From positions 141,169 to 205,168 of the IMG/VR virus record IMGVR_UViG_3300037423_001636: 64,000 nucleotides of DNA, one strand, 5' to 3'. Position numbers and translations under genes: made by a program. The stretch comes from a virus. Its lineage: Duplodnaviria; Heunggongvirae; Uroviricota; Caudoviricetes. Position 1 is the first letter of the stretch. Each line of letters starts with the position of its first letter. The notes below the pieces were generated by a model. It did not search any database and was not told the origin of the DNA. It was given only the letters and a program-made list of their open reading frames with translations. Below are positions 1,779 through 61,135 of the stretch, piece after piece.

Positions 1779-1854
1779 GTCTTGACCACCTGACCAAGGA
1801 CGCAAGAATCGATAGACTGACCGCTCTGTCCACTCTGGCGGTCCACCACTCTGC

Positions 1855-3363
1855 ATGGCGCAAGCACTCTTTTCTATTGATCACGAGAAGCACTTCCTCT
1901 CGGCGGTCATCAAAAACCCAATCGTCCTAGCCGAATGCCCTCTCATCAACGAGAGAGATTTCAGCGATATCAACCGTCCAGTCTTTCAGACGGTTAAGAT
2001 GATTCTAGCCAGTGGAGCCGATTTCTCCAAGTTTGTGCTAATTGACCGGCTGGCCGCGATGGGATTGAAAATCGGCGGCGTAATCGAGCCAGCTACCTAT
2101 GTCAACGCTCTGGACCTGCTCAACGTCTCTGACAAAGCGGCGGCCAGCATCGCGAAGGAGATTAAGCGAACCACCGTTAGGCGCGAGCTGAACGCAATTG
2201 GCCGCTCCATTCAAAACACAACAGAGGATGACAAAAAGGGTAAGAAAGCATCGGAGCTGGTGGCTGAGGTTACGGCCATCTTCAATCAGCATATTAATCT
2301 GATTGAGGGGAGTAAGGACCATGAGCCAAAGGACCTGTACGGCACTACCGACGACTTCCTAGAGAAGGAAAATGACTTTGATGTCAAGAGCCTGCCGAGT
2401 CCGTTCCCTATCTATAACGACATGTACGGGTACTTTGACCCCGGCAATATCTACTGTTGGATAGCCCGCATGAAGGTTGGAAAGAGCAGCTTCGCCATGT
2501 CCATGTTCCAGCAGATGGCGTTAGCGGACAAAGACGGATCTTTCAGAGCTTTGGTGCTGGATACGGAAATGGGCACTGAAGAAGTCCAGAGTCGCATCAT
2601 CGCGTCTCTCAGCGGAGTGAAAGAATTTTACATTCGCCACAAGCTCTATCGCCAGAACAAGCATATGCGGGATAAGATTGATAAGGCGCGGGAATTGATG
2701 CGCCCGCTATGGGGTAAAATTGACCACGTGTTCATTGGCGGAATGAGTCTGGACGAGCAAATTAGTGTCGCGCGTCGATGGAAGGCCAAGCGTGTCGGGG
2801 CTGGCGAGCGGGGATTAATGGCTCTTGACTATTTCAAGCTTGGTTCTGCGTCCGAGTTCGATAGTCGCAACTCTCGCGATATAGTGATCGGTAAGAAGGT
2901 TGATGCATACAAGAATCTGAGCAAGGAACTGCGCATACCCATCGTGGCATTCGGGCAGGCCAACCGCGAAGGCGAGGATAGCAAGGCAGGTAGCAAGGTG
3001 CAGAACTCCAGCGTAATCGGCGGTTCCGATATGATCGCCCAATTCTGTTCGAACATCTATCTTCTATCCCGACTTTCTCCGGAAGAACGTGTCTGGCTCA
3101 ATCAGGTTGCGCCGGGTTCGGCTACTCACTCCCTCAGGCTCATCGCGCCGCGGCAGTTGGGACCAAACGAATTGGGACAAGACTGTCTAGTGAGGTATAC
3201 TGACGACAGGGGCAAGGAACGGTGGTCAGAGAACTTCCTTCTATTCTCCTTCGAAAATTTCGTGTTCCGTGAGGTTTGTACTTTCAGGGACATCGTTCAG
3301 CGTGGAGAGTTGGTCGCTAATGTCCAGCAGGGGCACGGTGGGCCGGCGGGACCAATGCTCTAA
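1855..3363 (+). CDS. DnaB-like replicative DNA helicase
   Basis: 502 aa. There is a RecA-fold Walker A motif (ARMKVGKSSFAMSM). A DnaB-like C-terminal motif (VAFGQANREGE) corresponds to the DnaB arginine-finger region. The gene lies directly upstream of the primase. Confidence 0.75.
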   Translation: MAQALFSIDHEKHFLSAVIKNPIVLAECPLINERDFSDINRPVFQTVKMILASGADFSKFVLIDRLAAMGLKIGGVIEPATYVNALDLLNVSDKAAASIAKEIKRTTVRRELNAIGRSIQNTTEDDKKGKKASELVAEVTAIFNQHINLIEGSKDHEPKDLYGTTDDFLEKENDFDVKSLPSPFPIYNDMYGYFDPGNIYCWIARMKVGKSSFAMSMFQQMALADKDGSFRALVLDTEMGTEEVQSRIIASLSGVKEFYIRHKLYRQNKHMRDKIDKARELMRPLWGKIDHVFIGGMSLDEQISVARRWKAKRVGAGERGLMALDYFKLGSASEFDSRNSRDIVIGKKVDAYKNLSKELRIPIVAFGQANREGEDSKAGSKVQNSSVIGGSDMIAQFCSNIYLLSRLSPEERVWLNQVAPGSATHSLRLIAPRQLGPNELGQDCLVRYTDDRGKERWSENFLLFSFENFVFREVCTFRDIVQRGELVANVQQGHGGPAGPML

Positions 3364-3368
3364 TTTCC

Positions 3369-4217
3369 ATGCCCCTCGACCGCTCCAAACTTCACAAGGT
3401 TGTCATAACATCCGACGGCTTTCAGGCACAATGTCCAGAGTGTGCGCGCAACGGCCATGATTCAACAGGAAATCACCTCAGAGTCTGGGGCACAGGAAAA
3501 TGGTCATGTGTGCTTTATCCATCCGACGAAAGCCACAATCGCGCCATCTGGGAGCTTGCCGGCGACGAGTCTTCAGAACCCGCATTCGACGCCGTTCAGC
3601 TACCCACCCTAGAGCTAGATCGTGTATGGGATGTCTCTCTATTGGACGGACTGGTTAAGGATTATTCGTATTGGGAGGGGCGTGGCATATCGCGCGAAAC
3701 AATAGAACCATTCCGGGGCGGCGTCGCCACCAAAGGCCAACTAGATGGGCGATGGGTCATACCAATCTTCAACTATCAAAACGATGAACAGATCATCGGA
3801 TTTACTGGCCGCGCTCTGAAACCCGGCATGCTGCCGAAATACAAGCATCTTGGCAAGGTATCCCGCTGGGTCTGGGGCGGACTTGAAGACATCCAGTCCA
3901 GCCGCCGCGCCATTCTCGTGGAATCTCCCGCTGACGTGCTGTTTCTTAGAGAGCATGGAGTCTACGATGTGATCTGCCTATTTGGGGTCAATTTGTCTCA
4001 GAACGTGCTGGGATTTCTAATTGCCGCAGACCCGGAGCAAATCATCGTATCCACGAACAATGACAGCAAGCATAGAGTGGGGCAGATGGCCGCAGAGAAG
4101 ATCAAGAAAAGTCTTGATCTATTTTTCAGTCCCGAGACGATAGAGATTATACTGCCGCCGGCTAAGGACTGGGCGGATAGTCTCCCAGAGAGAATACGAG
4201 ACACATTTCATCAATGA
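3369..4217 (+). CDS. DNA primase (zinc-binding CHC2 finger + TOPRIM domain)
   Basis: The N-terminus reads CPECARNGHDSTGNHLRVWGTGKWSCV, a zinc-ribbon motif. A TOPRIM-like segment ILVESPADVLFLREHGVYDVICLFGV follows. The gene sits next to the helicase. Confidence 0.7.
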   Translation: MPLDRSKLHKVVITSDGFQAQCPECARNGHDSTGNHLRVWGTGKWSCVLYPSDESHNRAIWELAGDESSEPAFDAVQLPTLELDRVWDVSLLDGLVKDYSYWEGRGISRETIEPFRGGVATKGQLDGRWVIPIFNYQNDEQIIGFTGRALKPGMLPKYKHLGKVSRWVWGGLEDIQSSRRAILVESPADVLFLREHGVYDVICLFGVNLSQNVLGFLIAADPEQIIVSTNNDSKHRVGQMAAEKIKKSLDLFFSPETIEIILPPAKDWADSLPERIRDTFHQ

Positions 4218-4561: not shown

Positions 4562-5055
4562 TGGAACAACAGCTCGAACTAGACCTGAACGATACTCCCA
4601 AAAAGTGGGAACAGAGTAATCATCGCGTTATTCTTGTGGACCTAGATCGTACTCTAGCCCACTTCACCGAGAACCATGGTCCCGACAAGATTGGCGAGCC
4701 TATTGCTCCCATGATAAACCGGGTAAAGCGGTGGTTGGATGAGGGGCATGTCGTGCGTATATTTTCCGCCAGAGTCGGCCCGCATTCTGAGGAGGGTTAT
4801 GCCGAGCGCGCCCGCCCCGCCATCATTGAATGGTGCAAGCAGCATATCGGCCGCGAGTTGGATGTGACCGCCGTCAAGGACTGGAAAGCCTCTCTGATTA
4901 TCGATGATAGGGCCGATGGTTGTGAGGCCAATACTGGCCGGCTCCAGTCGGAGCGAATCTCCGATCTGGAACATAGGATTATAGAACTGGAGACCGCGTT
5001 AGATCTCACTAATAGTATATTAGTCGGGAACGAGCGGGAAATAAACCATCGCTAA
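4561..5055 (+). CDS. HAD-superfamily phosphatase (likely nucleotidase)
   Basis: Motif I reads VILVDLDRTLA (DxDxT). A motif-IV-like LIIDDRAD is also present. The start ATG at 4561 overlaps the MazG stop (TAATG), so the six-frame ORF starting at 4480 was trimmed. Confidence 0.55.
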   Translation: MEQQLELDLNDTPKKWEQSNHRVILVDLDRTLAHFTENHGPDKIGEPIAPMINRVKRWLDEGHVVRIFSARVGPHSEEGYAERARPAIIEWCKQHIGRELDVTAVKDWKASLIIDDRADGCEANTGRLQSERISDLEHRIIELETALDLTNSILVGNEREINHR

Positions 5056-5518: not shown

Positions 5519-6525
5519 TGGCCGAGCCGCCCCAAGTGACCAAACCTCTCTGGCTGTCTGCGTCCAAGATTGACACCTTCCAGAATTGCTCGGCTCTGTA
5601 CAGCGCGAAATATCTTTGGCGTTTGCCAGACCCCAGCAATGATGGCGCTCGTCGCGGCTCCGCAGTCCACGATGTCCTCGAAATCCTCCTGCGTCCGCGT
5701 CACAGACGAATCTACGACGCCGCTATAGAAGCGGGCACCTGTCAGAAAGTCCCGGCTCTATGGAGAGTTGTGGAGCGCAAGGCTCGCAAGTATCAGGTGG
5801 CCGATGACGAGAATATCGAGATGATTGATGCGTTCATCATGGTAGCCCTGAAACACGAGTTTCATGGACCCAAAGGAACCACTGAAATTGTGGGAGAAAA
5901 GCCGTTCGAAATCAGCGTCAACATGGGCGGCAAACGGTACAACGTGCGAGGCAAGATAGACCGGACCGCGACAGTGAAGGACAAGACTGGGGTCGTTATC
6001 TGGGTTAGGGACTATAAATCCTCGAAGGAAAAGTTCAAGGGCGAAAAGCTCACCTACAACATACAATCCCTGATGTACCAGCTTGCTCTGCGCCACCTCT
6101 ATCCACAGATCAAGCGGCGGAACTTCGACTTTCTGTTCGTCAAGTTCCCACGCGAGCCGATTCAAACCCAGCCCAGCTTCACCGATTTGGAGCTTGACGG
6201 ATTCGAGTGGATTCTCACGGAGCTTCAGTCTTCCATGGAGTCATTCACTATGGACAATGCTCTGGACAACGCGGCGGCCGGCGATCCAGAGCGCGGCTGG
6301 CTCTGCGGCAAAGAGGGCAAGAAGAAGAATGGTCAGCCGAATTGGATTTGCGGGATGCGTTTGCCGCGAGATTACTGGGTGTTGCTAGAAGGCGGAGAGA
6401 TTCAGGAGAGCTGGGACAATGAGCCGGCAATCACTCCAAAGCCGGGGCAGACTCTGGAGAAGCGCTATTATTCTGGCTGCCCCGCTCACTTCAACTCGCG
6501 CGGGCAGAGACGGAATTTCTCTTGA
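5518..6525 (+). CDS. PD-(D/E)xK nuclease, Cas4/RecB-like exonuclease family
   Basis: The sequence GKIDRTATVKDKTGVVIWVRDYKSSKE...YNIQSLMYQLA fits the D...(D/E)YK...Q.Y nuclease core. There are cysteines near both termini. The start codon makes an ATGA overlap with the previous stop. Confidence 0.55.
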   Translation: MAEPPQVTKPLWLSASKIDTFQNCSALYSAKYLWRLPDPSNDGARRGSAVHDVLEILLRPRHRRIYDAAIEAGTCQKVPALWRVVERKARKYQVADDENIEMIDAFIMVALKHEFHGPKGTTEIVGEKPFEISVNMGGKRYNVRGKIDRTATVKDKTGVVIWVRDYKSSKEKFKGEKLTYNIQSLMYQLALRHLYPQIKRRNFDFLFVKFPREPIQTQPSFTDLELDGFEWILTELQSSMESFTMDNALDNAAAGDPERGWLCGKEGKKKNGQPNWICGMRLPRDYWVLLEGGEIQESWDNEPAITPKPGQTLEKRYYSGCPAHFNSRGQRRNFS

Positions 6526-6555
6526 CCTGTCCACCAAGGTAGAAAGACTGATAGA

Positions 6556-12584: not shown

Positions 12585-12652
12585 CAGGGCGCGGAATCCA
12601 AGATTCTCATTGACTCCATAATCAGCGCAATTAAACTCAACTCACATACAAC

Positions 12653-13661: not shown

Positions 13662-14566
13662 CGTAGAAGTGGTTGTGAGTCGCACGCTCAGCGGTAAAAG
13701 ATTTTTCTTGAACAATAACACAATTTGCGGTCCAATCGGCGTAACTTCACACGACATTTCACGTCATTCGTTTTTACATCTTCTCATGAGCCAAACCTCA
13801 ACAGTCCAAGCGAACCAGCCGATTACGGCATGGTCGCCGTATTGTCTGGATAGCGAAAGCCGTCCATTCAATAGCGTGTCCCTTAAAGGGGCTACGATTG
13901 GGGCGCGGAACTAAGGAGAAGCGCAGCAGAAAGTCAAGTTCTCCACCAGTTTCGAGGCTCCAAGGCAACTTGGAGCTTTTTTTGTGTCAGCGACCGAGCC
14001 ATAGGGCACCAGTTCTTTCAGATTCACTCTAGCAACGATTCTTCAGAAACACACTTGACAGATTCAACAGAGTCTAAACAGTGGTAGAGAGTTGAGGCTA
14101 GTAGACACTTTTGGACCCGCGAGTCGGGTCCGACTCGGCGCAAGCCGAGTATTCTTTCTCAGATTCCAAAAGCGGCATTGATTACCTGTTGCCGCGACCA
14201 AACCCAGAGAGCTTGGGATACAGCTCCGAGGGATCATGTGATGAGTTCGTAGCCGGGAATGTTTCCGGTGATGAGAACCAACCCGCATTTAAGAGTTGGT
14301 GACCTTACCCTTTCCAAAGTGAAAGCTGTTTACTCTCCTCGTTCCCGCAGAAGCGGTGGAGCGGGGGGAGTCTCTTTGCTCAGCCCAAGGTGGCCGGCGT
14401 TAGCCCGCTAGAATAAGCTGAGATGATAGCGCCACTATCCCTTGGGACGTGGCACGAAGTAAATGAAAGGAAGACGACATGATTGTCATCTCCCTGATCG
14501 CTGTGCTGGGTATTCTGGTCATTTATGACCAAGACTATCGCCGCGGCGAGTAATCAGAAAACAACC

Positions 14567-14743: not shown

Positions 14744-15331
14744 CTAGTGCGGATCGACTATCTCGATCTCCGGGACAACTCCTTCAGTATTATATTGAGC
14801 CTCTTTCAACTCGAAATGAGTTTCCCTATGGCAGTTGGCGCATAGGATGTCGCATTTGTCTAGTTCTTGTTTTACAGCTGTACTGAAGCCGAGGCTTGAA
14901 TCCTTGGAAAGGGCAAAGTCCTTTTCTGAAGGGTCTCTGTGATGGAATTCAAGAGCTGTAATACATCGATTATAGCCGCATTTTATGCATTTGCCGCCTT
15001 TGTATTCGACGCAAAGCTCCTTGAACCGTCTTTGTCTTCGGCGTAGTTGTAGATGAGTGCATTTTTTACAATATCCAGACGCACCCTCTTTACCATTCTT
15101 GTTGTAGAACTCTGAGCGTGGTTTAGCCACTTTGCATTCGGGACATGTTCGAATCGGGGCGTTGATTATTCGTTCTGGTAGTTTCACTCCGTGTTTGTTG
15201 GCCCACCCTTCTAGTTTCGTGGTGCTCACCATTAAGGCGGCGGCTGTAGCCTTGATTGTTTTATGAATGTGGAGCGCATTCTCAATTTCGACTTTGGTCA
15301 TCGGTCTTCTATTCTGTGATGTTCCTCTCAT
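14744..15331 (-). CDS. HNH homing endonuclease
   Basis: 195 aa on the minus strand, opposite to the surrounding genes. HNH motifs: CIKCGYNRCITALEFHHRDPSEKD ... CANCHRETH. Confidence 0.75.
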   Translation of the reverse strand: MRGTSQNRRPMTKVEIENALHIHKTIKATAAALMVSTTKLEGWANKHGVKLPERIINAPIRTCPECKVAKPRSEFYNKNGKEGASGYCKKCTHLQLRRRQRRFKELCVEYKGGKCIKCGYNRCITALEFHHRDPSEKDFALSKDSSLGFSTAVKQELDKCDILCANCHRETHFELKEAQYNTEGVVPEIEIVDPH

Positions 15332-15431
15332 AGTATAGAGATTTACACCAAAGATAGTCGGAGTTTGACTGTCTCTAGATTTATTTCGAATCTACCGCCA
15401 ACACTCAGTGTAGCGGGAACAATTTATTTTC

Positions 15432-15506
15432 GCCTCTGTGATGTAACAGCAAGCATGTGACATTGCCAATGTCAGCGACCGAGGGCAGCACTCGGCAGGG
15501 GCACCA
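15432..15506 (+). tRNA. tRNA-Gly(GCC)
   Basis: Acceptor GCCTCTG/CAGGGGC. Anticodon arm TGACA-TTGCCAA-TGTCA. T arm CCGAG-GGCAGCA-CTCGG. Encoded CCA. Confidence 0.55.
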
Positions 15507-15654
15507 TTTTGAACGTCTCAATGTCGGCTTTCAATGGCTAAGAAAGCCCGCGAGAATGCGGGGAACGAATGGTGGGTGCCGTTGAGAGCCCTTTTCGCCA
15601 TTCTGCATGATGCTGCTGCCTCAACATCCAAGGCATCCGTTCAATTGAATTTTT

Positions 15655-15745
15655 GGGTCGGTGCCTAGAGTAGCGATTAGCTCGGCCTTTTAAGCCGCCG
15701 CGGGTCACACCGCCATCGGGGGTGCGAGTCCCTCCCGACCCACCA
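15655..15745 (+). tRNA. tRNA-Leu(TAA), class II
   Basis: Perfect acceptor GGGTCGG/CCGACCC. Anticodon loop TTTTAAG. Long variable arm. T arm GGGGG-TGCGAGT-CCCTC. Encoded CCA. Confidence 0.6.
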
Positions 15746-15751
15746 ATTTAC

Positions 15752-15826
15752 GGCGTGTTCGTCAAGTAGTAAGACCGGAGCTTGCAAACCTCCTATACGC
15801 TGGTGCAAATCCAGCACGCGCCTCCA
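15752..15826 (+). tRNA. tRNA-Cys(GCA)
   Basis: Acceptor GGCGTGT/ACGCGCC. Anticodon loop TTGCAAA. T arm GCTGG-TGCAAAT-CCAGC. Encoded CCA. Confidence 0.5.
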
Positions 15827-15976
15827 CTCTCCCCTCTGGGCTCTGCGCTTCAGCAGGCGTCTGACCAGTATGCGGGCCGACAAGGCAAACCGCGAAGGAT
15901 GCGAGGAACCATCGTTGTTGGTGAGGCTCTAGAGCCGAACTGACTATAGCCCCGACGTATACTGGGGCAGAATTTC

Positions 15977-16059
15977 GGGGGATGGGAATGCTATAGTGTG
16001 TTCGCCTGTTTCGCAAACAGGATATTAACAGTCCGGGGCAGATCCGGAATCCTCCACCA
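15977..16059 (+). tRNA. tRNA-Ala(CGC)
   Basis: Acceptor GGGGGAT/ATCCTCC with a G3:U70 alanine identity pair. Anticodon arm CCTGT-TTCGCAA-ACAGG. T arm TCCGG-GGCAGAT-CCGGA. Encoded CCA. Confidence 0.6.
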
Positions 16060-20273: not shown

Positions 20274-20346
20274 TTTTGATCCTGTACACAGGATCATACA
20301 GCGGTTGACAGTCCCCGCTGGGAGTGGTTAGAGTCCACAGGACCGA

Positions 20347-20903: not shown

Positions 20904-20907
20904 ATTT

Positions 20908-20961
20908 GACTCCACGAAAACTATCAAGTTAGCGAGGGTGAGAATCCCTTTGGAGTCGCCA
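20908..20961 (+). ncRNA. Mini tRNA-like unit (54 nt): acceptor stem + T arm + CCA, with the D and anticodon arms replaced by a short hairpin
   Basis: Perfect acceptor GACTCCA/TGGAGTC. Discriminator G and an encoded CCA. T arm GAGGG-TGAGAAT-CCCTT. The central 19 nt fold only as AACT-ATCA-AGTT. Confidence 0.4.
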
Positions 20962-25001: not shown

Positions 25002-25029
25002 TTCTACGCTTGACTCCGGCCGCTAGGCT

Positions 25030-38110: not shown

Positions 38111-38742
38111 CAGATTGTCAAAGCTGTGCTTTGGCGCTTGACAGATAGTGCAGAGTGTAGATGATGGTTCTCATGCCGAACCTACTGCGTGAAGGTATTT
38201 CCGCAATTCGACTCTCCTACGTAAAGCGGTTTGCTTCATTCGTACTGAGCTTGTCCGGCTATTCAGTTTTATTCTGGGCGGACTGGAGAGTCGCGCTTGG
38301 AGTCTGGCTCCTGCAATGGGGCGGCAATGTTTATCGTTCAATCGGCAGCTAATCTCAACCCTTTCATTCATTCTCATGGAAATCCGGCATGTAGACGGTT
38401 CCGTATCGGATACCGACAAACTCCCTGACACCACGGCCTTAGTTATGGAGAAAGTCAAGGAACTCCTTGACCTCTGTGAGGCGCATAAAATCCCGCTTCT
38501 GCTTAGGTTCAGTACCCATGATGGCAAGCACTCCGGCGCGCACTGCGCTCTTCATCCCACGAAGGAGGCCGGGCAAGTGATTATTGAGTTGGTGAGCGAT
38601 TGGTGCGATTTGATTGAGAGGTTCTGGCCGGGTTGTCGGGTCATGATCGTGCATGGAGAGCCGCCGGATGACTTGGACGACACAATGCGGAGATTGGACG
38701 AGCCGCCGCCGCCCACAATCTAAGCCTAGACTTAATCTCGTC

Positions 38743-42822: not shown

Positions 42823-43959
42823 TGGTTCCATCCACACCATACCTCTTCGTTGAGATCTGGGTCCCGAAACGCGCACCCTACAATCACCCAGACCACGGCT
42901 GGCCCTCTATCGTGGGGGACTTTGTTAGGCCATTGGCGGAGGCTCATCCGGGACTGCTGATCTGGTTTCTTCGCGAGGGACCATGGTTCCAACTCTGTTT
43001 TGCGGCTCCGCCACAGTCTTTTCTAAGCGGGTTGGGTTACACTCTCACCGACGTGCAGAATAGTATGCGGAATATTGCTAGAGCCCGTGGATTCCACATT
43101 AAGCGATATATTCGCGGCAGCACTCTCGGCGGCGCGCTGGGCGGTTCCCGCTGGAATGCAGTGTCTGAACAAGGGCGGCCTAATGAGGGGGTGCGCTCTC
43201 TATTGCTTGCGCAAGCTTGTCACGCGGTCTGCGCTGTTTACATGAACACTCTCGTGCGGGAAGGCCGTGGCAAATCTCGACATTGGGAGGTGGGCCGCCC
43301 CGAATGCACGAAACAGAATCCTCATGGCAATCTGTTCGAATCATTTATGCATCTTGTAGCCAATATCACCGACGCTCAGTTCGACGTGCAGATTCAAGCT
43401 CGGACCCGATGGATGCATGATGGCTGGCAGAAGACGAGTGTGACGTGTCATCTTTGATCTCCATATGAACGAACCCGACTCACCCGATCTTCCCGCGATT
43501 CCAGAGACTCTGGAAGAAGCCGTGGACCAAATTGTGAGTGTAATGGACGAAACGACCAAGGTTCAGTGGCGGGCGGCCAAGAGCCCAGAGTTCACTTCAA
43601 ACTTTCATTTCGGCGGCGGCATGTCGATGAGAAACGGCTGGGGACTCTGGCATCACAAAACCCCACTTTCACGCTGGCTCTTAGAGCGCAGGATATTCCA
43701 CGGCGATGACGCTTCGCAAGTTATCTTCAACGCTGTGTGGCGGCGACTAAAAGGTCTGTCTATTGATGACGCTTGGTTGGCAGAGCGCGCGGCATTCTAC
43801 GAGGACTATTGGGCACGAACTGCTGGACTGACTTGGGACCAAAAGCCTATCCCGGGCTGGAAGGCTCCAAAAAATGGGTGGAAGTATCGTAGGAACCGGG
43901 CTACGGGAGAATGGGAGATGGAACGAGATGATGGGGATGAGGCAGAATCTCCTTGACGA

Positions 43960-44643
43960 GTGGCCAGTAGTCTGCCAGTCTACACTTTCATGCTTAGGAC
44001 TCTCAAAATCAATCATTCTGAGGACGACATTTTCTTCTATAGCGATCTTCACATTCATCACGACCGAGACTTCATTTGCAAGCCCCGCGGCTTTACATCT
44101 GTGGTCGAGCACGATAAAACTCTGATTGAGCGATGGAATGATACGGTCAAGGATACGAGTGTAGTCTTCCATTTGGGCGACATCATCTTCAAGTCTGATG
44201 AAAACGGCTTCTGGCAACTGATGGCTAAGCTGCGGTTCGGGCACCTGTATCTGATGCTCGGGAATCATGTGTCAGGTCAGAAACAAGCCTATCAGATTGC
44301 TTGCGCTGGACTTCCACTTCAGCCGGGGCAGGAGGTCTACCCTCTTACCGCTCTGACTTGGGACGATCGTCCTTATACCTATCTGCCCGAATATATTGAG
44401 ATTGAAGTGAACAAGCAGAGCATGACGCTTTGCCACTACCCCATTGCTTCGTGGCATCACGTTGGTCATGGCAATATACATCTTCACGGTCATTGCCACG
44501 GTTCTCTCAAGGAGAAGCTCCCTCGTCGTCTCGATGTTGGAGTGGAGAGTGTGAAGCGTCCGATCTCGCTCAAAGAGATTAATGTGATGATGCGTGGGAT
44601 GGAGCCGGCGCTGGTGGATCATCATGGGAAAGATACGACATGA
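43960..44643 (+). CDS. Metallophosphoesterase (YfcE-like)
   Basis: The motifs DLHIHHD, HLGDIIFK (GD), LMLGNHV (GNH) and HLHGHCHGS (GHxH) are present. Confidence 0.55.
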   Translation: MASSLPVYTFMLRTLKINHSEDDIFFYSDLHIHHDRDFICKPRGFTSVVEHDKTLIERWNDTVKDTSVVFHLGDIIFKSDENGFWQLMAKLRFGHLYLMLGNHVSGQKQAYQIACAGLPLQPGQEVYPLTALTWDDRPYTYLPEYIEIEVNKQSMTLCHYPIASWHHVGHGNIHLHGHCHGSLKEKLPRRLDVGVESVKRPISLKEINVMMRGMEPALVDHHGKDTT

Positions 44644-45095: not shown

Positions 45096-45619
45096 TAGAC
45101 TTCGCCACAATCGACTTGACACTCTCTCCAGACTCTGATTCACCATCATCCTCATGAACTCTCCCACACCCACTCTCTCTGTTTCTCCGGCTGCCCCCAG
45201 CAAAACCGTCACTCCCTCCATCCCTACGGAAGCGCTGGCACCAGTCCGCACAGTTTCTGTTCGCTACGACAAGAACTCTTCCAATTGGGCCATCATTGAT
45301 CCTAAGAATCCGGAAAAAGTGCTTGAGACTATTACCGCGTATCCAGCCTATCTCACAAACGTCCGTTTCAGTTCTCAGGAGAAGCGCAGCAGCGGCGGTG
45401 GATTTTGCGGCGCTCCCGTCGTCCATGACGTGCAAATTGTCGGTATCGCCACTGGCAACCTGACCTTCAATCGACCCAAGGAGACTCAGGATTCTGTTCC
45501 TTGCAATCTGTCATTCAAAGACGGTCAGTTCCGTTCGTGCGCTACGGCCATCACGAAGGCCCGTGCCGTTCGCCTGTCGGCGGACCGTTTTGCGACAATC
45601 TGGATCTGAGCCTGAGCCA

Positions 45620-46381: not shown

Positions 46382-46423
46382 TCCGCTTGACAGATTCCCC
46401 GCACTCTGTTCGCCTAGCCGGCC

Positions 46424-46921: not shown

Positions 46922-47428
46922 GACCGCCCACCCCCGACAATCCTAATCTCCCATGTCTCGCTATCCATTTACCAAACCCGCTCCGGGCACCGAGCGGCTG
47001 GAACGTCTGAAGCGCTGGCCGGGGCTGAAGCGCAAGTGGGCAAGCCGATCCGTTCTAATCTGGTCTGGTGAGCATAGGGCTTACTGGCGGAAGGACGGGT
47101 GCGGTTATACCACTGATTCCGCTGAAGCTGGTGTTTACGACTTCGAGGACGCCTTGACTTACACCTATCACTGCGATCCATCCAAACAAATCTGTTACGA
47201 ACTCATTCCCATGAAGAACCAAAGCACTCTCCGCGATCTAGAGCGCATTAACACTATCACCAGACTCTCCCACGATCTGGCCGATGCCAAGTGCCGGCAG
47301 GCTGATTTCAACATCGGCACTCGGGAATATAAAGCGTTTGCCGAGCAGATTGCGACGCTCAACAAGCTTCTAGCTGAGCTGCAAGTCGGCACCAGCACTG
47401 AACCCTGAAGAATATATCACAATTTCTC

Positions 47429-47457
47429 TTGACGGGCGGCTGGCGTTCTGCTAGAGT
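47429..47457 (+). promoter_or_regulatory. Sigma70-like promoter candidate (TTGACG-N17-TAGAGT) upstream of the AAA+ gene
   Basis: The -35 TTGACG at 47429-47434, a 17-nt spacer and the -10 TAGAGT at 47452-47457 lie about 90 nt upstream of the ATG at 47548. Confidence 0.45.
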
Positions 47458-49092: not shown

Positions 49093-52026
49093 GTCTAGGC
49101 GAACACTGTCTGTTAGGTCCGAACTAGGCATAACGAAGACAGGGGAGGGCGGCTTAGGAGTAGGCCGCTCTCCCCACATTTTTCAGTATCATGACGCTAT
49201 CACCAGAACAGCTTGACATTCTAGTTCACACCAGCCGCACCGGCCGCTACGTCTCTGACGAATGCGCCCCACTGGTCGAGTTGGTAAACGGCGGACTTCT
49301 TTTCGATTACGGCCCACAGAAGCTGGCGGGTGGTATGCATTATTTCACTCTAACTACGGCTGGGTCGGAAGCTCTGGCGGCGCATCGTGCGACTCTACCT
49401 AAGCCGAAGCCTCTTACCCGCGCCCAGCGCCGCTATAGAGAGTTCCTCTCCAGTGGTGGCATCCATGGAAGATTCGGCGACTGGTTGAAACACCGGATGT
49501 ATTCCGCTTGACCCCATGACCGCTTTAGCTATCATTATCAATATCGTCATTCTCGGCGTCCTCGCTCTTTCATGGCTCATTGTCCAAGACTTCAATGGCG
49601 GCAATGACGGCGACGATGATGCTTGGGGCGACTGACTCAACCACCATTAGCATTCACTCTCTATGGACTCTTCATCCTCTTCCTCACCTCTCGCCAGCCC
49701 CGTTCTCTCCCAGATTCCCAAAGCGCAGGACGCTTTCATGCGGACCATCGCTAACTATGCTAACGTGGACACGAATGATCTGCTAGCGAAATCAGCGACG
49801 CTCATCAATGGTGCTATTGACGCTGGCCGGCTAGCCGCAACTCTCATGCCCATTGAAGATCCGATGGTCGCGGAGAAGCTCTCCCTTCAACTGAAAGAAT
49901 TGGGCTATGCTACTGGCGTCGTGCAGGTCGGCAGCCAAGGGAGGCCAGATGGTTCCACGGTTCCAGTGCTGGGCGTGCAGATAAATTGGCTCTGGTCATC
50001 AATGCCGTATCGTGACGCCTATTCCGTTTGACGCGGTGCCCATGAGCGCCAACACCGATCGTCGCTTTCCCATCATCTCCACTGCCGACAAACTCGACGA
50101 TGAGGTGAAGAGAATCCTTTCTACCGTCGGCATCAAACGGCCCAACCTGCGTTTCTCCATTTTCAATGATCTCGGCTGGACGCCCAAGCGTTGGAAGATT
50201 TCGCATCCCGATTTGACGAGTGTGTTCCATCACGGCAAAGCCCGGTTTTTCTGCCACGGCTGGTGGCAGGGTGAGGATTCCTATGGCAGTTCAGTCTACG
50301 AGAATCCCCTCTGGTCTGATGTGGTGATTGAAGCAGAGCGCGCCATTCGGTTTGCGGGTGGCGGAGACCACGTGTTTCTGGAGTCCGTTAATCCGGCCCG
50401 CATTCAGGCTCACGATGTGCAGTGGTTCGACCTGATATTCGGCTCATAAATCCTTTACCCTCACTTATATGAAAGCTGCATTCGAAAAGCTCGACGGAAC
50501 CGTGTCCGTCCAGAATGTCCCGAGCGTGAAAGAAGGTTCCGACATCATCCTCACCCCAGCGCGAGCTGGCATCGGCGGCGAGGTCATTGGCTACTTCCGA
50601 TACGATCTCACGAAAGAGCGTTGCGATGATCTGCCTCTCTACCGACAATCTCGGCAGCCACTTGACGGCTTTCCCTATCCACTGCTTACGACCCCGCCGG
50701 CTGTTTCTATAAACTCAGCCAATCCCACTTCATGAATCTTCCGCAACCGCACTCCAATCCAGATCGCAATCACGACAACATTCGCATGGGCGTCTGGTGC
50801 CACGTTTGGGTGAATGTCGCGCGCTCTGATAATTGCGACGACCCCAAAATTGCGACCAATTGGGCAGATCGTGCTCTCGAAGACTTCGACGCTCGGTTCC
50901 TATCGCCAGCTGAGCTGGTGGAGCAGGAAGCGGCAGAGCGTGAAAAAGAGAAGACAGCAAAGTCCAAGAAGGGAAAGTAGCCGAATCGTCTTGACTCTAC
51001 AGCTAATCTAGCGACGGTAATTGATTCATGTTCCGCTGGCTTCGCTCACTCTTCTCGTCTAATCCAGTCCCTCCTACAGAGACCGCCGATGGTCCATATC
51101 GATTCGACAAGCCAGCCACGAAATCTCAGCCACCCAAACAGTCTACGCTCTTTGCCCCGCCAGCGCCATTGCCAAAAACTCAGAGGGTGGAGGTCGTTCG
51201 ACCACCCATTGAGTCAGACTCCTATCAGTGGATCGATTATGGAGAGCCGACGGTTATTCAGCCCACTAAGCCGGCTGAACCGCCCGAAAAACCAGTCTTT
51301 AAGAACGAGCAGGCCGAGCTAGAATCAGAGGGGTCTCGACTGGGCCGCTTGGCTTCTGGCATATGTAGCACGGGTGCAAATTGGTTTATCACAGGAATCT
51401 GCATGATGTCAGGTTCGTATCGCTGGGACGAACCAGCGCCAAAGCCCGCTCCCGTCTATCGTCGCAATGGAGAGCCATTCAACGAGGACGTTCCCAAGGT
51501 AGAAAAAAAACAGACTTCTAATGGACGCAACTACTGGACAATCTCGGGTTAAGTCTCTTACGGTCCGCAGGACCATGCGGCTTCGTCATTTTGTCGGCCA
51601 CAGTCTCGTTACAGTAGCTCATTTCGACCGCACGTTGTTTCGTCCCGTTGAAGACTATGGCTTTGTCAAGCCCAGTGGCGGCCTGTGGACCTCTCCTATT
51701 GACTGCGAGAATGGTTGGGAGACGGAGGGCGCAGAGATGTTTGGTCCTGAGGCGGTCGCCCATTGGTTTGATATCGAATTTACGGGAAACTGTCTGACTA
51801 TTGACTCTCTAGCTGATCTGGATAAGCTGGACTATCGTCATTTTGCAGATGGATTGCACAGTCGGTTTCCTATATTCGAGCCGCTACTAGCCGCAGGAGT
51901 GGACGCAATACACTTGACGTGGCGCGGGCAGTGTGAGACACGTTTATCGTTTCCCCGCAATCTGTATGGCTGGGACTGCGAATCTGTCTTCATCATGAAT
52001 CCTGATACTATCACACCCATCACTCT

Positions 52027-54402: not shown

Positions 54403-54635
54403 TTTGTCCGTGAGCAAACCTCGCTACGAATACAAGGTTGTTTTCGGTGGTTATGATTACTTCCCGGAGATCACGCTCAACGAGTTGGCTCAGCTGGGAT
54501 GGGAGTTAGTCACGGTATCCGCTGCGACTCCCCATGGCGGGGGTTCACACATCTACGGATACTTCCGGCGAGAAGTCCAGCCTACCGTGGCCACAGCTAC
54601 TTCTGTACAATAGACTTCATTTCCACCTTGACAGT

Positions 54636-54648
54636 GGACGCAAGAATC
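54636..54648 (+). promoter_or_regulatory. Conserved 13-mer GGACGCAAGAATC downstream of a CTTGACA motif (second copy at 1798-1810)
   Basis: The exact 13-mer follows CTTGAC at two distant intergenic sites (1782-1810 and 54628-54648). Each precedes a gene start (1855 and 54695). Confidence 0.4.
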
Positions 54649-56369
54649 TACAAGAGTCCCCATCTTAAACATCAATCTACAACCACATATATTCATGAGC
54701 AATCAATCTAAAAAACGTCTGAATCTAGCCGAGAAAAACCCCATCAATCTCGCCCTTGCCCGCAAGGTCGCCGATATTGTGAGCAAGGGGCTCACCTCGG
54801 GAATGGACGACGGCACGACGGACGAAGCTGGTAATCCTGTTCCCGGCCACATGTGCGTGGAAGCCGCGGTCTCGTTTGCCTGTGGAGAAGACCATGACGA
54901 CCATCCGAAGTGCGTGGCTAGATTCGTCGCCGACTACAAGATTGGGTTGAATGATGAAGGCACATATAAGAGCAAAAAGGATCGCGGCGAGTGCCTGCGC
55001 CGTATTGCGGTAGCCCAGTTGGGCTCGAAACAAATCAGCCATAGTGATTGGGAGGAGGCTCTCGGAGCCGCGGTGGAAGCCCACATACCGACGCTGGCCG
55101 TTCGTCTGAAACAGTGGGGCAAAAACTATGGTAATGAGAAACTGGCCGGGGTGCTTATCTCGGCGCTTAACGCCGTCGGCGAGAAACGAATGATGGAGGC
55201 TTTGGACGAATTGAATTCCAATGGAGTTGATGGAATGTACTATATCTGCCCCCTTGATTGTCAATCAGTCGAGGCAATCATTAATCTCTGGGGTGATGAT
55301 CGCAAGGGCACCCTCGCCGCCATCGAAATCGGCATTGACGCGCTGCGCCGCTGCAAGTCGCCGGGAATCAAGTTGATGGACAAGCTGATCGCGGAAGGAG
55401 TTATCTAACACCTGTCGGTGCTGGTTAGTGTCTTCGACACGAATTTCTATTTCAATGGCTAGCAAGCCTTACAGAGAAGTTCATAATCCTATCGACTGGA
55501 GCTGTCAGGGCGTAGAATCCGAGTTTATCCCCCCATCAGACTTCGCTTGGGAACTGATGGAGCATATGAGAACTCATAAGCTGGAGTGGTTGCATATGCA
55601 CTATCCTGAGCTTACATTCCAGCGTATAAATTCGGTCAAAACGCCCCGCCGACCAGATGGGACGCGGTTCGACTACTATACAAGAATCCGCGGCGGGGTT
55701 TGGATTGTGGCCGAATGGCAGAAAGCGCCACAAACCTCATGAGCGGAATCTTTCACGAAGACTCTAATCTCGGGGGCATCACTCGCTATCGAAGGGTTCC
55801 CGCCCCTTTCAGCATCGGCAATCCGGGACACTCAGTCATTCAAGCCGTGTATCTAGCGCCCGACGAAGACGTGATTTGGAACTGGGCTCATACACCGGAT
55901 GGGTCGTATGTCTGTGGCTACTCGATTCATAAACGCGACGAAACATCTCAATGAACACAGATTCCCCAGTATCACCAAAGCCCAAACGCACTTTCAACGA
56001 TCCCCTTTCCAAGATTCAGTCGCTCATTGACAAGCTACGGGCCAAGGGATGGATTTGCAAGGAGGGATCGGCTTATGGTGACGACTGGTGGTCAATTCGT
56101 TCGCCCCGCCTAACCAGCTCCGCCAGCTTCGACATTTATTGGGTTGGCGATCCCGAGCCGACGATGGATGAAGTGATTCGGCTAGAGTGCCAGTACTATG
56201 CTCGGCAGGAGCATGGAAAGCATATTGACGCGTCGCTTGAACTGATCAAGAACGATATTCTGAATAATCTGTCTATGGCGTATTATGCATCAGCATCAGC
56301 GGGGAAGGACTTTCCGATACCAGATGAGCTGGTAGTGAAGGATGTGACCGTGAAACTAAAAGGTGACAA

Positions 56370-56882: not shown

Positions 56883-58823
56883 CCAAACCGTCTAACCGAT
56901 TCGTGGCAGTCATCAACGACAACTGGGATGAGATTGAGAAGGACTGTTTTGAGGATACTGCTGAAGCCGCGCTGAAGTTCGTCGCGGAGAATCAGGACAT
57001 CACTCTACCCGGCGACAAGGTAGTCGTCTATCAGGTCACGCCCGTGCTCGCCGCCGAAATTGAGCGGGAGATTGTGACGCATACCAACGTTCAACGATTC
57101 TGATCTATATCCATGCGCAAACAAACTGCCCTTCGTCTTAAACAGTGCTGTCTCATGACCTCATCTGACATCCAGACCGCCCGCCGACGATATCGGCGGC
57201 TAAAGAAGGATTGGAACAAAACTCCGTCGAACGCCCGGCACCAGCTCATGCAGACGCTAGAGAAAGCTGCGTATGCCATGGCCGCCAGCAGCTTGCAACG
57301 GGCCGCGGCGTAGAATCTCTTTTTTTTCTCGACAATCTGACTGTCAGATCCATTCTAGCTCAATTCTGCCCATGATCTACCGCATCCACTGGGAAACCCG
57401 CTGCGTAGCAGCCAATCCAAAGCTCAACGCGCCCAGCCGGCCAGAGTCCCGCGAACTCACTTGGTGCGCTGGCTTCACTCCGATTGAAGCAGAGAGCCGA
57501 GAACAAGCGGTGAGACTATACCGTTCGACGTTTCCCGATGATTGGATTCTAGATGTGACCACTTGACCGCATACCCCCCTATTTCATTCCACTCTATTTA
57601 CCATGAACACATCCGACCTCGTTTCTACTGTCATCGCCAGTTTACGGGCTGAGAATATCGACGCCGATACCATCAAACGTGTTGTTGAACAGTTGCGGGC
57701 CAAGGCTGCTCGTGAGAAGGCTCACAAAGACCCAACCCCCAAGCAGAAAAACCAGTATACCGTCCTTCTACTCGATGAAGACGGCAAGCTTCCTGAGGGG
57801 CTAACTGGTTGGATCTGCCAGTTGCCAGAGAATGAAAACCCGCTAGAAGCGATTGACCGAATCCGAGATGGAGTCATCGCCTTTAACAACAGCCGTGCCG
57901 GCCGCCACGCGCCCATCTATCGCATTCAGGATGCCTTGGAGAACTTGCCAGCACGATTCTTGAAGCGTGAGGCAGACGGTACAAAAATGAGCGTGAAGAC
58001 CAAAACGCCTTGCCAGCTCGTCCCACTTTCCACGGCCAAGGTTCCCTGATGCCGACCACCCGTCACACTCTCTTTCAGTCCCGCGATCACCGGGCAGTCT
58101 ATGCCGAGCTTACCCGGCTCGACGAATTGTACCGCTCTCTTTTTCGCCGCAATCTGACTGTCCGACTGTTCTTCTGCTCTGAGGGGCCAGAGCGCTCAAG
58201 CATCTACTCTATCACTGTTTACGTTGATTCTGTTGAACAGGAATCTGAGTTGAAGTGGCTCGCCGAACAAAGCCTGCAACCAGTCGTTCCCCTTCTCTCC
58301 TCTTTCCTCGAATCATCCCCCACACATCTATGACCAGCCGCGCTTTACGTTTCGTCGTCATCAATCCCTATCAGGATATTCCCACCTCCTATCACTGTGG
58401 GCTCGGCAACAACAACGCTGAGTCATGGGCGCTCTACAACGGTAGAATGAATCATGGCCGGGTTCTCGTCGAAATGTCTGATGGATCAGTCGAGGTTCAT
58501 GCGGATTTCAGCCGACGTGCGACACGCGACACGCAACCACAGCCAGAATCCGTGTAAATCATGATGAAATGGGCGAAAATTCTCAGCCCCCGAAGCCCGA
58601 AACCGCCGACCCTTACACGGTCAAGCGGACTTTGCTCTTCCTCGCGCGAGAACTCCGCACCCAACAGTTTATATTACGGGCTCAGGTCCAAAAGCAGGCC
58701 AAGCTCAGGCGACAGGAAAAGGAGACCCGTCGGCATATTCGCGAGATTGTCGCTCGCATTCAGCGAGAGATGGATTCTCACCCTGACATTTTCCGCAATT
58801 TAGGAGATTAGCACAACACATTT

Positions 58824-59198
58824 ATGTCTTCTCTCTACATTTTGATCCCCGCCGCGCTAGTCGGCATTCTCATCATTATCCGACGGCTTTGGATTCTGGC
58901 GAATATCGAGACATACACTTTGACCGCCAGCTGGTATTGCTGGCGCACCAAACAGCCAAATTATGTGACGAAGGAAATGGGTGAGCTGTGGCCCACATCC
59001 TATATGTTTTGGGAATTTTGGCACTGGGATTTTCGACGCTATATCGTTCACCAAGAGCATCATGATGCCATGGTAGAGCAGATTGTGGAAGATCTATCCA
59101 AGACTGACTTGGGGTGGGAGATTTTTCAGGACAAAACAACGCCACCAGCCCCGCCAGTGAACAACAACGATTCTAACTCGACTCACGGCTCAAACTGA
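58824..59198 (+). CDS. Hypothetical small membrane protein
   Basis: 124 aa. The N-terminal hydrophobic helix reads LYILIPAALVGILIIIRRLWILANI. Confidence 0.35.
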   Translation: MSSLYILIPAALVGILIIIRRLWILANIETYTLTASWYCWRTKQPNYVTKEMGELWPTSYMFWEFWHWDFRRYIVHQEHHDAMVEQIVEDLSKTDLGWEIFQDKTTPPAPPVNNNDSNSTHGSN

Positions 59199-61135
59199 TG
59201 CTCAAATCAACCATCATTCAGCTCAAGCACGCCGAATACATTATCAAATGGGAGCACCTCGCCTGTCTTGCCGAGGAGTTCTTCGGTCATGTGGTCGAGA
59301 ATGTGCCGCCCGACAGTTCTGTCTTCACGATCGAGTTTAGCGGTGACGATTCCACATCTCATTCCAAAGCTTTCAAACTCACTCTAGATTCGGGGTTCAC
59401 GCCGCGAAGCTAGCGACCCCACACTCCAACATTCAAACACACCACACTTATGATCCGTCTCAACGAAGAGATCGGCCAATTTCTGCTCTCTTGGTACGGC
59501 AACGGTTACGCCCTTGGCTTTGCTGGCGATGAAGACTTCATCGAACGTTGTTTCAATTGGACACATAATACGGGAGTCATCTCCCTCAATCAGCGGCTTG
59601 AATGGTTCTATGGAAAAGGCGGCCGATTCGCTTATGTGTGCCCACAGACCACAGAAGACATTCTGATTGGACTCACGGCTCAGTTCAGAGTGGAGATTAT
59701 TCAAGATAAAGAAGTTCCGCTATTGAAGGACGAGTGGGACGATGAGAATGAGTGTCCTATTTTGGAATATGATGAAAAGGCAATCAATCGACTTGCTCAT
59801 GAGCGTGCCAAAGCGTTCTTCGAGGACCGAATCGTTCTAGAAAATTTTATGTGCCGACAACCAGTCTTTTTGGCTCCAATCTACGAGATGGGCGTGGCGG
59901 GACGGGCGGATGTTGCGGCAGAGGCATGACTTGGCGCATAGGCAGAACGAATCCACTTCCAGTGATTGCCCCACCCGCGTGGAGTAGCGAATGACTAGGC
60001 AAGCTCGGTGGCAGGCAGATCATCGCAGACGAGGTTTATGCCTACTCTGCTCTGCCCCGGCGTTCCGGGATTCTCCATATTGTGAGCCCCATCTTGTAAA
60101 GCGTCGTTTGCGCACTCGCCAAGCCCAAGAGAGTAGAGAATGGCAGCCGGGTCGAGCTGGCAGACCTCCGAAAAACGAAAAATAGGTTTGGCGACTTCGG
60201 TTCCGCATTAAGGCTTGACACGGAGATATCTTTCCGCACCCTCATAGCCCTATGTTCGGATGAAAAATCCCTTTGCCTACCGCTCCTCTCTTTACGTTGG
60301 CACTGTCCACGGTTATATGCCTATCGGCTACATGATGAATTGTGGATTTCCGGTTCTTTATGGACTGTTTTGGCAGATTCTACATTTGGACCCATCACTA
60401 CCGCGGCAGAAACATGAGTCCTATCCAGTCATATGAAGACAACAAAAAAACAATCCCACGAACCGCTCCGCATTTTCGGTCTCGACAAAGACCAGTTGAT
60501 CAAGCTGAATGAATGGATCAAAACCCACGATAAGACGTGTCCATATGCTAATCCGTTAAAACAGGGCGCAATCGGCGGCCGGCTGTCCTATGAATTCACT
60601 CCATCCAGTCTCGGCACGTTCGCTGTGGTGAAATGTGCGTGTAAGGCAGAGTGCAATGTGACTGATTATGACGCTTTTTAAGCATGACTACCGACGAAGC
60701 TCTCAATCTCGCTGATAGCGGAGACTATCATTCTGATGATCCTCTTGTGGTTCTCGCGGAGGAGGTGAAGCATTTGCGCAGTGTTCTTAAACCCCTCTGC
60801 AAACTGGACGAGCCACCCACACGGGAGGAACGTATGCGAGCACGGGCAGTTCTCTATCTGTGATCCAGATTGTTATCGTCGTCAGCAGAGTTCGGAATCC
60901 GCTTATGAATCTGCGCGTCTACACTCCAATCAAGATGCCTTTTCGCTTTCTCGGCTCCTTTCTCTTTTGGCGGCGCTGGTCTCGTGAGAACAAGGCGCGA
61001 CTGACTTTAAACCTGTCATCATGACGCTAATTCCCAAGCCGGCGGGGGAAAGTCTCCAAGAATCGTTCTTGACATTCTATCACACTTCTGCACATCATCG
61101 CTTATTCACCGATTCACTCATCGCTTCATTCTACC

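Follow-up and report, generated by a model that had tools for sequence, protein, structure and literature searches.

The window analysed here is a stretch of 64,000 nucleotides (nt) of an uncultured phage (Caudoviricetes; IMG/VR record IMGVR_UViG_3300037423_001636, positions 141,169 to 205,168), in which the hexamer CTTGAC recurs on the plus strand upstream of many genes. The analysis indicates, with a probability of roughly 0.7, that CTTGAC here serves as the -35 element of some 20 promoters of the sigma-70 family, for which the housekeeping sigma factor of the host is the most likely reader. The assignment to a class of promoters is supported by the strand of the sites, their placement, their fixed geometry relative to start codons and their recurrence in related phages. 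A minimal nAnnnT -10 box is present, from which the T at -12 has mostly been lost.

The window lies inside a contig of about 205 kb, which is the longest contig bearing the polymerase P0001. A 121 kb contig in the Logan run SRR35148478 is identical to the window and served to lengthen the sequence to 83,033 nt (hereafter, the extended sequence), with overlaps that contain 0 mismatches; domain searches covered these 83 kb of the ~205 kb genome. The GC content is 53%, and the plus strand carries nearly all genes. The genes identified encode an exonuclease, a DnaB-like helicase, a primase-like Toprim protein, a PD-(D/E)XK nuclease, a metallophosphatase and a DnaE-type Pol III alpha subunit, and further ones code for a PurA-family enzyme, an SPFH protein and AAA ATPases. 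One zone contains at least 20 tRNAs together with the genes of a TROVE/Ro-like protein and an RNA ligase. At the DNA level, GenBank has no similar phage, the protein matches are distant only and point to phages of many hosts, and a profile search of genome contigs with the DnaE alignment gave no match. The nearest relatives are metagenomic contigs with 54-63% DnaE identity, many of them of ~190-210 kb, and six loci from such relatives (L004 and L084-L088) were compared with the window.

A preliminary description of the window had listed fourteen CTTGAC sites upstream of genes. All of them are present (Table 1); the positions then given deviate by 0-1 nt at twelve sites, by 5 nt at the site given as 28545 and by 9 nt at the site given as 57553. 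On both strands of the window CTTGAC occurs 56 times, against 35.6 +/- 6.4 in dinucleotide shuffles, and 0 of 100 shuffles reach 56. The non-coding DNA, which makes up 11.8% of the window under unbiased six-frame calling of open reading frames (ORFs), holds or touches 14 of the 30 plus-strand copies (p=2e-6), and CTTGAC ranks first among the 4096 hexamers for plus-strand non-coding enrichment. No such bias is seen on the minus strand, with 4 of 26 copies in non-coding DNA. In the extended sequence, 19 of 39 copies are non-coding, compared with 5.5 expected (p=3e-7). The placement upstream of genes is reproduced with the independent gene calls of the Logan contig, in which 12 gene starts have CTTGAC 30-75 nt upstream (2.07 expected; p=2e-6), as opposed to 2 gene starts with its reverse complement at this distance (1.91 expected). 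Both the frequency and the position of the motif are thus above the shuffled controls that had been proposed as a check.

The extended consensus (A)ATTTCTCTTGAC described for several sites holds at three of them, namely 6521, 26525 (as TTTTCTCTTGAC) and 47428. The exact 13-mer GGACGCAAGAATC shared by two promoters is likewise found, at 1798-1810 and 54636-54648. By chance, ~30 exact 13-mer pairs are expected in 64 kb, and ~0.02 with both copies in promoter windows. Because the two copies stand at different offsets from the -35 (+16 for the copy at 1798 and +8 for that at 54636), the 13-mer was rejected as a fixed promoter element.

To define the remaining parts of the promoters, 21 promoter-like TTGAC sites were aligned. 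These comprise the sites of the preliminary description except 28550, together with 12610, 20305, 20906, 25010, 43953, 49508 and two sites in the flanks; 68 other TTGAC copies constitute the control, and offsets are numbered from the first T of TTGAC as 0. The site at 28550, which is intergenic and not coding because an in-frame ATG (28586) lies downstream, was recognised as a promoter site later, and the start-codon counts thus use 22 sites. TTGAC is invariant by construction, and the sixth -35 base is A in 9 of the 21 sites. Upstream of it, A/T is found at -7 to -5, and C at -1 in 18 sites. The spacer displays C at +13 in 14 sites, with A at +14 beside it, and T at +18 in 15, and these positions are followed by A at +23 (13 of 21) and T at +27 (11 of 21).

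The view that most sites have no canonical -10 is correct by Escherichia coli criteria. A TTGACA/TATAAT scan of the region of 44-64 kb found 12 sites against 11.6 in shuffles, with no enrichment, and only three motif sites (47429, 49508 and 61069) pass a 9-of-12 E. coli-type match. The view does not stand in its general form, since a degenerate A-N3-T box, corresponding to -11A and -7T, at which sigma-70 region 2 makes base-specific contacts, exists at a spacer of 16-18 bp in 17 of 21 sites, compared with 11 of the 68 control copies (p=9e-8) and with a baseline of 17.5% in non-coding DNA (p=4e-10). The modal spacer between -35 and -10 is 16 bp, and the best -10 hexamer scores 1.85 at the sites and -0.80 at the control copies (p=1e-4). 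The hexamers are AAGAAT, AAGACT, TAAACT, AACAGT, TAGAGT (twice), CACGAT, CATCGT, GATGAT, CAGTCT, CACCAT, TATCAT, GACGGT, AAGAGT, CACCCT, CATCAT, CACACT and GACACT. The site at 47429 had been considered the sole one with a good -10; it shares this property with 49507 (TTGACC-16-TATCAT) and with two sites that had not been listed, 12610 (TTGACT-16-TAAACT) and 20305 (TTGACA-18-TAGAGT).

The TCTG/TCTA element noticed earlier downstream of the motif is substantiated by the alignment. TCTR occurs exactly at +18, 13 nt after CTTGAC, in 7 of 21 sites and in 1 of 68 controls (p=1e-4), and TCTG proper in six of the sites. With a 17 bp spacer, +18 corresponds to positions -17 to -14, the place of the extended -10 or "-16 region". 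TCTG is in this register at the 17 bp sites 43952 and 47428, the latter with the fullest version (TCTGcTAGAGT, 47446-47457), and also at 68383 and 70466, which lack TTGAC. In the right flank, the ATGs at window-equivalent 68397 and 70478 are each preceded, at a distance of 8 nt, by a sequence close to the fullest version, (C/T)CTGCTAGAGTC, again without TTGAC. CTGCTAGAGTC has three occurrences, at 47446-47457 in the window and at window-equivalent 68372-68388 and 70458-70471 in the right flank, and one flank copy has TTGCAT at 18 bp; the two flank copies look like extended -10 promoters of genes that would also be leaderless.

The distance from the motif to start codons is constrained. Transcription from a sigma-70-type promoter starts ~7 nt after -7T, which with a spacer of 16-19 bp places it at +34 to +37. 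Of the 22 sites, 11 have the ATG of a long ORF (59-344 amino acids) at +34 to +40; ten of these ATGs are given in Table 1, and the eleventh, at -3677 in the left flank, is at +34. With the independent gene calls alone, 7 ATGs fall at +34 to +40, in comparison with 0.72 expected (p=1e-5). In a hand count, the start predicted from the site's own hexamer is 0-3 nt before the ATG at seven sites; 28550 was also counted, by way of TTTTGT, which keeps -7T only, without -11A, and is not an A-N3-T call. The sites at 46386 and 57562 have no A-N3-T hexamer from which to predict a start, and at 38137 the predicted start is 1 nt short, with a hexamer that overlaps earlier in-frame ATGs. Since the ATG coincides with the predicted transcription start, the first genes at about half of the sites are probably leaderless. 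Enrichment, strand specificity, spacing statistics, the clustering of ATGs and the recurrence in relatives are observed directly, whereas the transcription starts and the sigma factor that reads the sites are inferred, and the leaderless state is deduced from promoter geometry alone. The same geometry indicates ATGs 25045, 26563, 28586 and 38173, which are in frame with and downstream of the longest-ORF starts at 25030, 26545, 28517 and 38161, so that these longest-ORF starts are probably wrong by 12-69 nt.

Leaderless first genes fit a genome that has no Shine-Dalgarno signal. Of 116 genes, 16 have GGAG, GAGG or AGGA at -16 to -6; this equals the random expectation, with ratios of 0.95-1.08 relative to the genome. 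The leaders are poor in G (0.19 vs 0.27) and rich in C, A and T, ATG accounts for 97% of starts, and in 63% of genes the next base after it is A. The relatives L084-L088 are also Shine-Dalgarno-poor, with such sites in 14-38% of genes. The absence of a Shine-Dalgarno signal is a strong clue to the host.

Comparison with the relatives reveals the same promoter architecture. L004, L084, L086 and L088, with 54-60% DnaE identity, display TTGAC(A/T)-16-TAnnnT-6..9-ATG, in which the -10 is more canonical than in the window. The arrangement is TTGACT-16-TACAGT-9-ATG in L004, TTGACA-16-TATGAT-6-ATG in L086, and TTGACA-16-TACCCT-9-ATG in L084, which also has TTGACA-18-TAGAGT-6-ATG with TCTGa just before TAGAGT. 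L088 contains three such promoter sites, one of them ahead of the metallophosphatase orthologue, matching 6521 in the window; no such promoter is found at this position in L086 and L087. Because the arrangement is shared but the site matching 6521 is absent from L086 and L087, the architecture is a family trait, while single sites turn over. In L087, the intergenic regions 3730-3800 and 4857-4920 are full of GGATCGGAC-type repeats in place of TTGAC promoters, and 14 of 31 copies of GATCGG in this locus are non-coding (p=4e-5). The phage in question may thus use another regulatory motif.

We propose that the promoters drive operons of replication, nucleotide-metabolism, tRNA and small genes. 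The near-perfect -35, aided by the TG-type element, would recruit the polymerase, with the A/T at -7 to -5 in the place of the proximal UP-element subsite, and the -10 hexamer would retain just the two bases flipped out by sigma region 2, -11A and -7T. Transcription would start ~34-36 nt past the first T. In half of the sites this point coincides with the A of the ATG or precedes it by 1-3 nt, so that translation of the first gene in such operons would proceed on a leaderless mRNA.

Region 4.2 of housekeeping sigma factors classically recognises TTGAC(A). Two readers of the motif had been envisaged at the outset, a host sigma with a -10 unlike that of E. coli and a phage-directed factor. The former, with a relaxed -10, fits best, as CTTGAC-N17-CTATAT is the sigma-70 consensus of Sinorhizobium meliloti and other rhizobia (PMC2873474, PMC3384568), and there is no positive evidence for the latter: the genes of the 83 kb examined include none with a domain of a sigma factor, an RNA polymerase or a known appropriator. 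The consensus of Rhizobium etli is cTTGAc-N16-cnATAA (PMC4167512), and that of Caulobacter RpoD is TTGaCgS / GCtANAWC, for which an accidental -35 alone sufficed to create new start sites (PMC8144410). In Caulobacter, 75.4% of genes have no Shine-Dalgarno sites and 375 mRNAs are leaderless (PMC4117421), and 171 leaderless mRNAs have been reported in S. meliloti (PMC3616915). A known host type is therefore matched, because CTTGAC, the absence of Shine-Dalgarno sites and predicted leaderless starts occur together.

The phage promoters have the same -35 as those of rhizobial and alphaproteobacterial RpoD, including the leading C in 18 of 21 sites, and would, like these, be recognised mainly through the -35, with a relaxed -10. 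The G-C-T-A start of the Caulobacter element is shared with the best -10 regions of the phage (tGC-TAGAGT), C-TA being present only in the best sites. The host side also agrees, with few Shine-Dalgarno sites and many leaderless mRNAs (PMC2873474, PMC3384568, PMC4167512, PMC8144410, PMC4117421). By contrast with the rhizobial consensus, the modal spacer of the phage is 16 bp and not 17 bp, the -12 T is mostly lost, and TCTG and CA are kept in the spacer. With the extended -10 (TGn) promoters of E. coli sigma-70 the phage shares TTGAC(A), a spacer of 16-18 bp, -11A and -7T; it differs in its G/C-rich -10 (TAGAGT, CACGAT, CATCGT) and in a TCTG that is fixed to the -35 and not to the -10. Voskuil and Chambliss are said to have described, in 1998, a "-16 region" with the sequence TRTG in Gram-positive promoters, and a T-n-T-G is found at -17 to -14 in the 17 bp sites of the phage, for example at 47446-47457.

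Large lytic phages (T4 early promoters, T5, T7 A1-A3) use host-polymerase promoters with a near-consensus -10 and Shine-Dalgarno-led genes. The promoters described here resemble the early and middle promoters of T4, T5 and T7 in that they are host-type, co-oriented and placed before short operons of replication and small unknown genes, with no phage RNA polymerase gene nearby; they differ in the minimal -10 and in the predicted absence of a leader from half of the first genes. The lambda cI gene transcribed from PRM is a leaderless transcription unit, and leaderless genes are also found in cellular organisms. They are known in Caulobacter, S. meliloti and Mycobacterium (PMC4117421, PMC3616915, PMC4633059). 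As in such units, the start codon in the phage stands no more than 3 nt from the predicted transcription start, is always ATG and has no Shine-Dalgarno sequence upstream, whereas the fraction of promoters concerned, about half, is high and is estimated here from promoter geometry alone.

Several observations weigh against recognition by a plain housekeeping sigma. Of the 17 sites that have an A-N3-T hexamer, only 4 retain the usually conserved -12 T, and four sites (20906, 28550, 46386 and 57562) have no A-N3-T at all. TCTG is out of register at the sites with a 16 bp spacer, which are the commonest class. Conserved bases inside the spacer, C/A at +13/+14 and a TCTG fixed to the -35 instead of the -10, are unusual for plain sigma-70; they could mark a co-factor or a common descent of the promoters. 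Our own Gibbs sampler, run on 47 non-coding segments, did not recover the bipartite promoter and returned a composition-driven (G/C)AWTC/pyrimidine pattern. The de novo support consists, therefore, of k-mer enrichment and targeted tests and not of a MEME-type model. Finally, an alphaproteobacterial host is inferred here, and the comparison is with published consensus sequences of rhizobia and Caulobacter.

The conserved spacer positions at a fixed distance from the -35 and the -10 that is weak by E. coli rules could also be accounted for by a phage-specific class, read by a phage-encoded sigma-70-family factor or by the host polymerase with a phage or host co-activator that contacts CA and TCTG and so offsets the poor -10. 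GANTC, which occurs 25 times in the promoter windows compared with 9.9 expected (~2.5-fold), would agree with such a factor, and the search for it spanned only 83 kb of ~205 kb. Within these 83 kb, however, no sigma, polymerase or appropriator was detected, and a faint GcrA-like protein of L088 and L084 has no homologue; TTGAC is the canonical target of region 4.2, relatives of other GC contents combine it with the more canonical TAnnnT, and non-coding DNA shows no enrichment of the palindrome AGANTCT. We regard this class as unlikely, and as quite unlikely its most distinctive form, in which a perfect -35 and a CA-N3-TCTG spacer would replace most of the -10, the open complex would need a phage or host sigma cofactor, and the whole would be coupled to a Shine-Dalgarno-free, leaderless-rich strategy common to the ~200 kb DnaE-type phage family. 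The spacer CA and TCTG, a -12 T that is mostly missing and an excess of GANTC are the oddities that keep a cofactor-dependent class alive at a modest probability.

An alternative host sigma, of the RpoH type (CTTGAA-N16/17-CnTATnT) or of the extracytoplasmic function (ECF) family, is very improbable. The RpoH -35 (cTTGaa) resembles CTTGAC, predictions for RpoH and RpoD overlap in rhizobia (PMC4167512, PMC3616915), and C is often the first base of the -10 hexamers (CATCGT, CACGAT, CACCAT). In the extended sequence, though, neither CTTGAA (4 of 26 copies non-coding, 3.7 expected) nor the ECF-type GGAAC (14 of 86, 12.2 expected) is enriched, the sixth base is C at every site that shows start-codon coupling, and the best sites, TTGACn-17-TAGAGT or TATCAT, follow the housekeeping-type pattern. 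It is just as hard to credit that the motif is not a promoter element and either serves a DNA-binding regulator as its operator or arises from composition or codon usage. Such readings would be in keeping with the 16 of 30 plus-strand copies that lie within genes, near chance frequency, and with an excess on the minus strand as well (26 copies against ~18 per strand in shuffles), yet the coupling to gene starts depends on orientation, ATGs cluster 34-40 nt downstream, a second A-N3-T element stands at sigma-70 spacing, and relatives show the same architecture.

Other candidates were considered as well. A Bacteroidota sigma-A promoter (TAnnTTTG at -7 and TTTG at -33) was considered because the genome has no Shine-Dalgarno sites; only 5 TAnnTTTG copies occur on the plus strand of the extended sequence, with no enrichment. 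A GcrA/CcrM mechanism is not favoured, as the positions of GANTC vary, 4 of the 25 copies in promoter windows come from TTGACTC itself, and the 83 kb yielded neither a GcrA homologue nor a methylase domain, although N6/N4 methylases are present in relatives. Inspected by eye, the protein with a faint GcrA match in L088 and L084 looks like a helix-turn-helix and endonuclease protein. GANTC is not enriched in non-coding DNA as a whole (6.6 vs 6.1 per kb), and shows a mild excess in the extended sequence (514 copies vs 450 +/- 22 in shuffles). A palindromic spacer operator (CAGAnTCTG / AGANTCT) is not enriched in non-coding DNA (10 of 59 copies, 8.4 expected); the 59 copies of AGANTCT in the extended sequence are mostly intragenic and amount to ~3x the expectation of a mononucleotide estimate. 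Codon usage or a methylation motif may lie behind these excesses. An archaeal BRE/TATA reading of the leaderless genes was dismissed by eye, the region between 24 and 31 nt before the ATGs being G/C-rich and the replication genes of bacterial type.

A diaminopurine (Z) genome, in which an A/T-rich -10 would lose its melting advantage and be pointless, was rejected, for the PurA-family protein is far nearer to cellular PurA than to PurZ. This protein (36782-38110) is a divergent PurA-family enzyme with the P-loop GDSGKGT. It scores 152 bits with PurA models (curated cut-off of 402) and 42.5 bits with the NCBIfam PurZ model (cut-off of 300), and its structure matches are to cellular PurA at 1e-27 and to S-2L PurZ (7odx) at only 1e-4. 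The PHROG family that it matches bears a PurZ-type name, and the PDB matches favour cellular PurA. A Z genome would call for PurZ along with DatZ and MazZ; no HD or MazG domains are recorded for the called genes of the 83 kb.

Table 1. Candidate promoters and one terminator of the window (all on the plus strand; distances in brackets and element offsets are counted from the first T of TTGAC).
Position	-35 region	Spacer and -10 hexamer	Other elements	Start codon	Context
1781..1809	CTTGACC	16 bp, AAGAAT		ATG 1855 (+73)	DnaB-like helicase; predicted leader ~39 nt; intergenic gap 1779-1854
6521..6549	(GAATTTCT)CTTGACC	16 bp, AAGACT		ATG 6556 (+34)	metallophosphatase, predicted leaderless; L088 promoter at orthologous position
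12609..12637	aTTGACT	16 bp, TAAACT		ATG 12653 (+43)	first gene past the DnaE-type polymerase; absent from preliminary description
14054..14082	CTTGACA	16 bp, AACAGT	TCTA at +18		faces zone of small ORFs and tRNAs
20304..20334	gTTGACA	18 bp, TAGAGT			42 nt before tRNA-Leu at 20347
20905..20935	tTTGACT	18 bp, TAGCGA	no A-N3-T		weak candidate; 62 nt before tRNA-Leu at 20968
25009..25038	CTTGACT	17 bp, CACGAT		in-frame ATG 25045 (+35)	RNA ligase, predicted leaderless
26525..26553	(TTTTCT)CTTGACG	16 bp, CATCGT		in-frame ATG 26563 (+37)	
28550..28578	CTTGACT	weak TTTTGT	TCTG at +18	in-frame ATG 28586 (+35)	
38137..38165	CTTGACA	16 bp, GATGAT		in-frame ATG 38173 (+35)	
43952..43981	CTTGACG	17 bp, CAGTCT	TCTGc in extended -10 register	ATG 43990 (+37)	
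45115..45146	CTTGACA	19 bp, CACCAT	TCTG at +18	ATG 45154 (+38)	
46386..46414	CTTGACA	TCGCCT (only -7T kept)	TCTG at +18	ATG 46424 (+37)	
47428..47457	(CAATTTCT)CTTGACG	17 bp, TAGAGT	TCTGcTAGAGT	ATG 47548 (+119)	AAA ATPase; best-consensus promoter
49142..49185			intrinsic terminator, 15-pair stem then T run		ends AAA ATPase transcription unit begun at the 47428 promoter
49507..49535	CTTGACC	16 bp, TATCAT			at end of gene 49191-49511; next called gene 49738
50990..51018	CTTGACT	16 bp, GACGGT (or 19 bp, GGTAAT)		ATG 51028 (+37)	
54627..54657	CTTGACA	18 bp, AAGAGT	13-mer GGACGCAAGAATC	ATG 54695 (+67)	
57562..57590	CTTGACC	no clear -10 at 16-19 bp		ATG 57603 (+40)	promoter-like
60214..60242	CTTGACA	16 bp, CACCCT		ATG 60260 (+45)	
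61068..61098	(GAATCGTT)CTTGACA	18 bp, CATCAT	TCTG at +18	ATG 61136 (+67)	

The tRNA zone (15480-26420) contains 18 genes called by ARAGORN, to which Rfam adds tRNAs at 18772-18843 and 19212-19284. The repeat families D1, D2, D5, D7 and D14 in this zone comprise ~10 more T-arm-like units, for example at 16033-16066, 17063-17093, 17861-17891, 18573-18611, 19016-19054, 19678-19708, 19764-19802, 20164-20200 and 20878-20909, and the CTTGAC at 18533 falls within one T-arm-like unit. Most of the called tRNAs have an encoded CCA end (a few have TCA or CCC), after which comes (A/T)TTT, and similar ends are seen in the extra units. A TROVE/Ro60-like protein (22342-23850) and the RNA ligase (25030-26079) are encoded amid the tRNAs and tRNA-like elements, and the relative L085 has RtcB. 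This arrangement suggests an RNA repair or Y-RNA-like module, for which the uncalled tRNA-like units could supply the RNA partner.

A second non-coding motif, GTGTAAATCTCT(A/C)T, is found at 15335-15348 (minus strand), 348-354, 16130-16136 and 58552-58558, and in the left flank at window-equivalent positions -6975 and -4260. Exact 14-mers of it are located upstream of the gene for the ribonucleotide reductase small subunit and, on the minus strand, upstream of the gene at 14744-15301. GTGTAAA has 5 plus-strand copies, all of them non-coding (p=6e-5). The motif may represent another promoter or operator class.

A scan of genome contigs with the GDP-mannose-dehydratase-like epimerase of the phage found a copy with 74% identity in L091 (JBAYJB010000035.1), a contig of 2.6 kb binned as a groundwater metagenome-assembled genome of Candidatus Paceibacterota. 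L091 is probably a mis-binned fragment of a related phage, and hints at a groundwater habitat for the phage family.

The element described here is of a known, textbook kind in a new uncultured phage, and the geometry that relates the ATG to TTGAC is newly observed. For this uncultured family of ~200 kb phages, the analysis yields a promoter model that can be used for the definition of operons and the correction of start codons. The combination of -35-dominated CTTGAC promoters, the lack of Shine-Dalgarno sites and predicted leaderless first genes likely narrows the host to a lineage with Shine-Dalgarno-independent translation initiation, of which Caulobacter-like Alphaproteobacteria are the best-documented case. 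The value of the finding is in annotation and host inference rather than in new biology.

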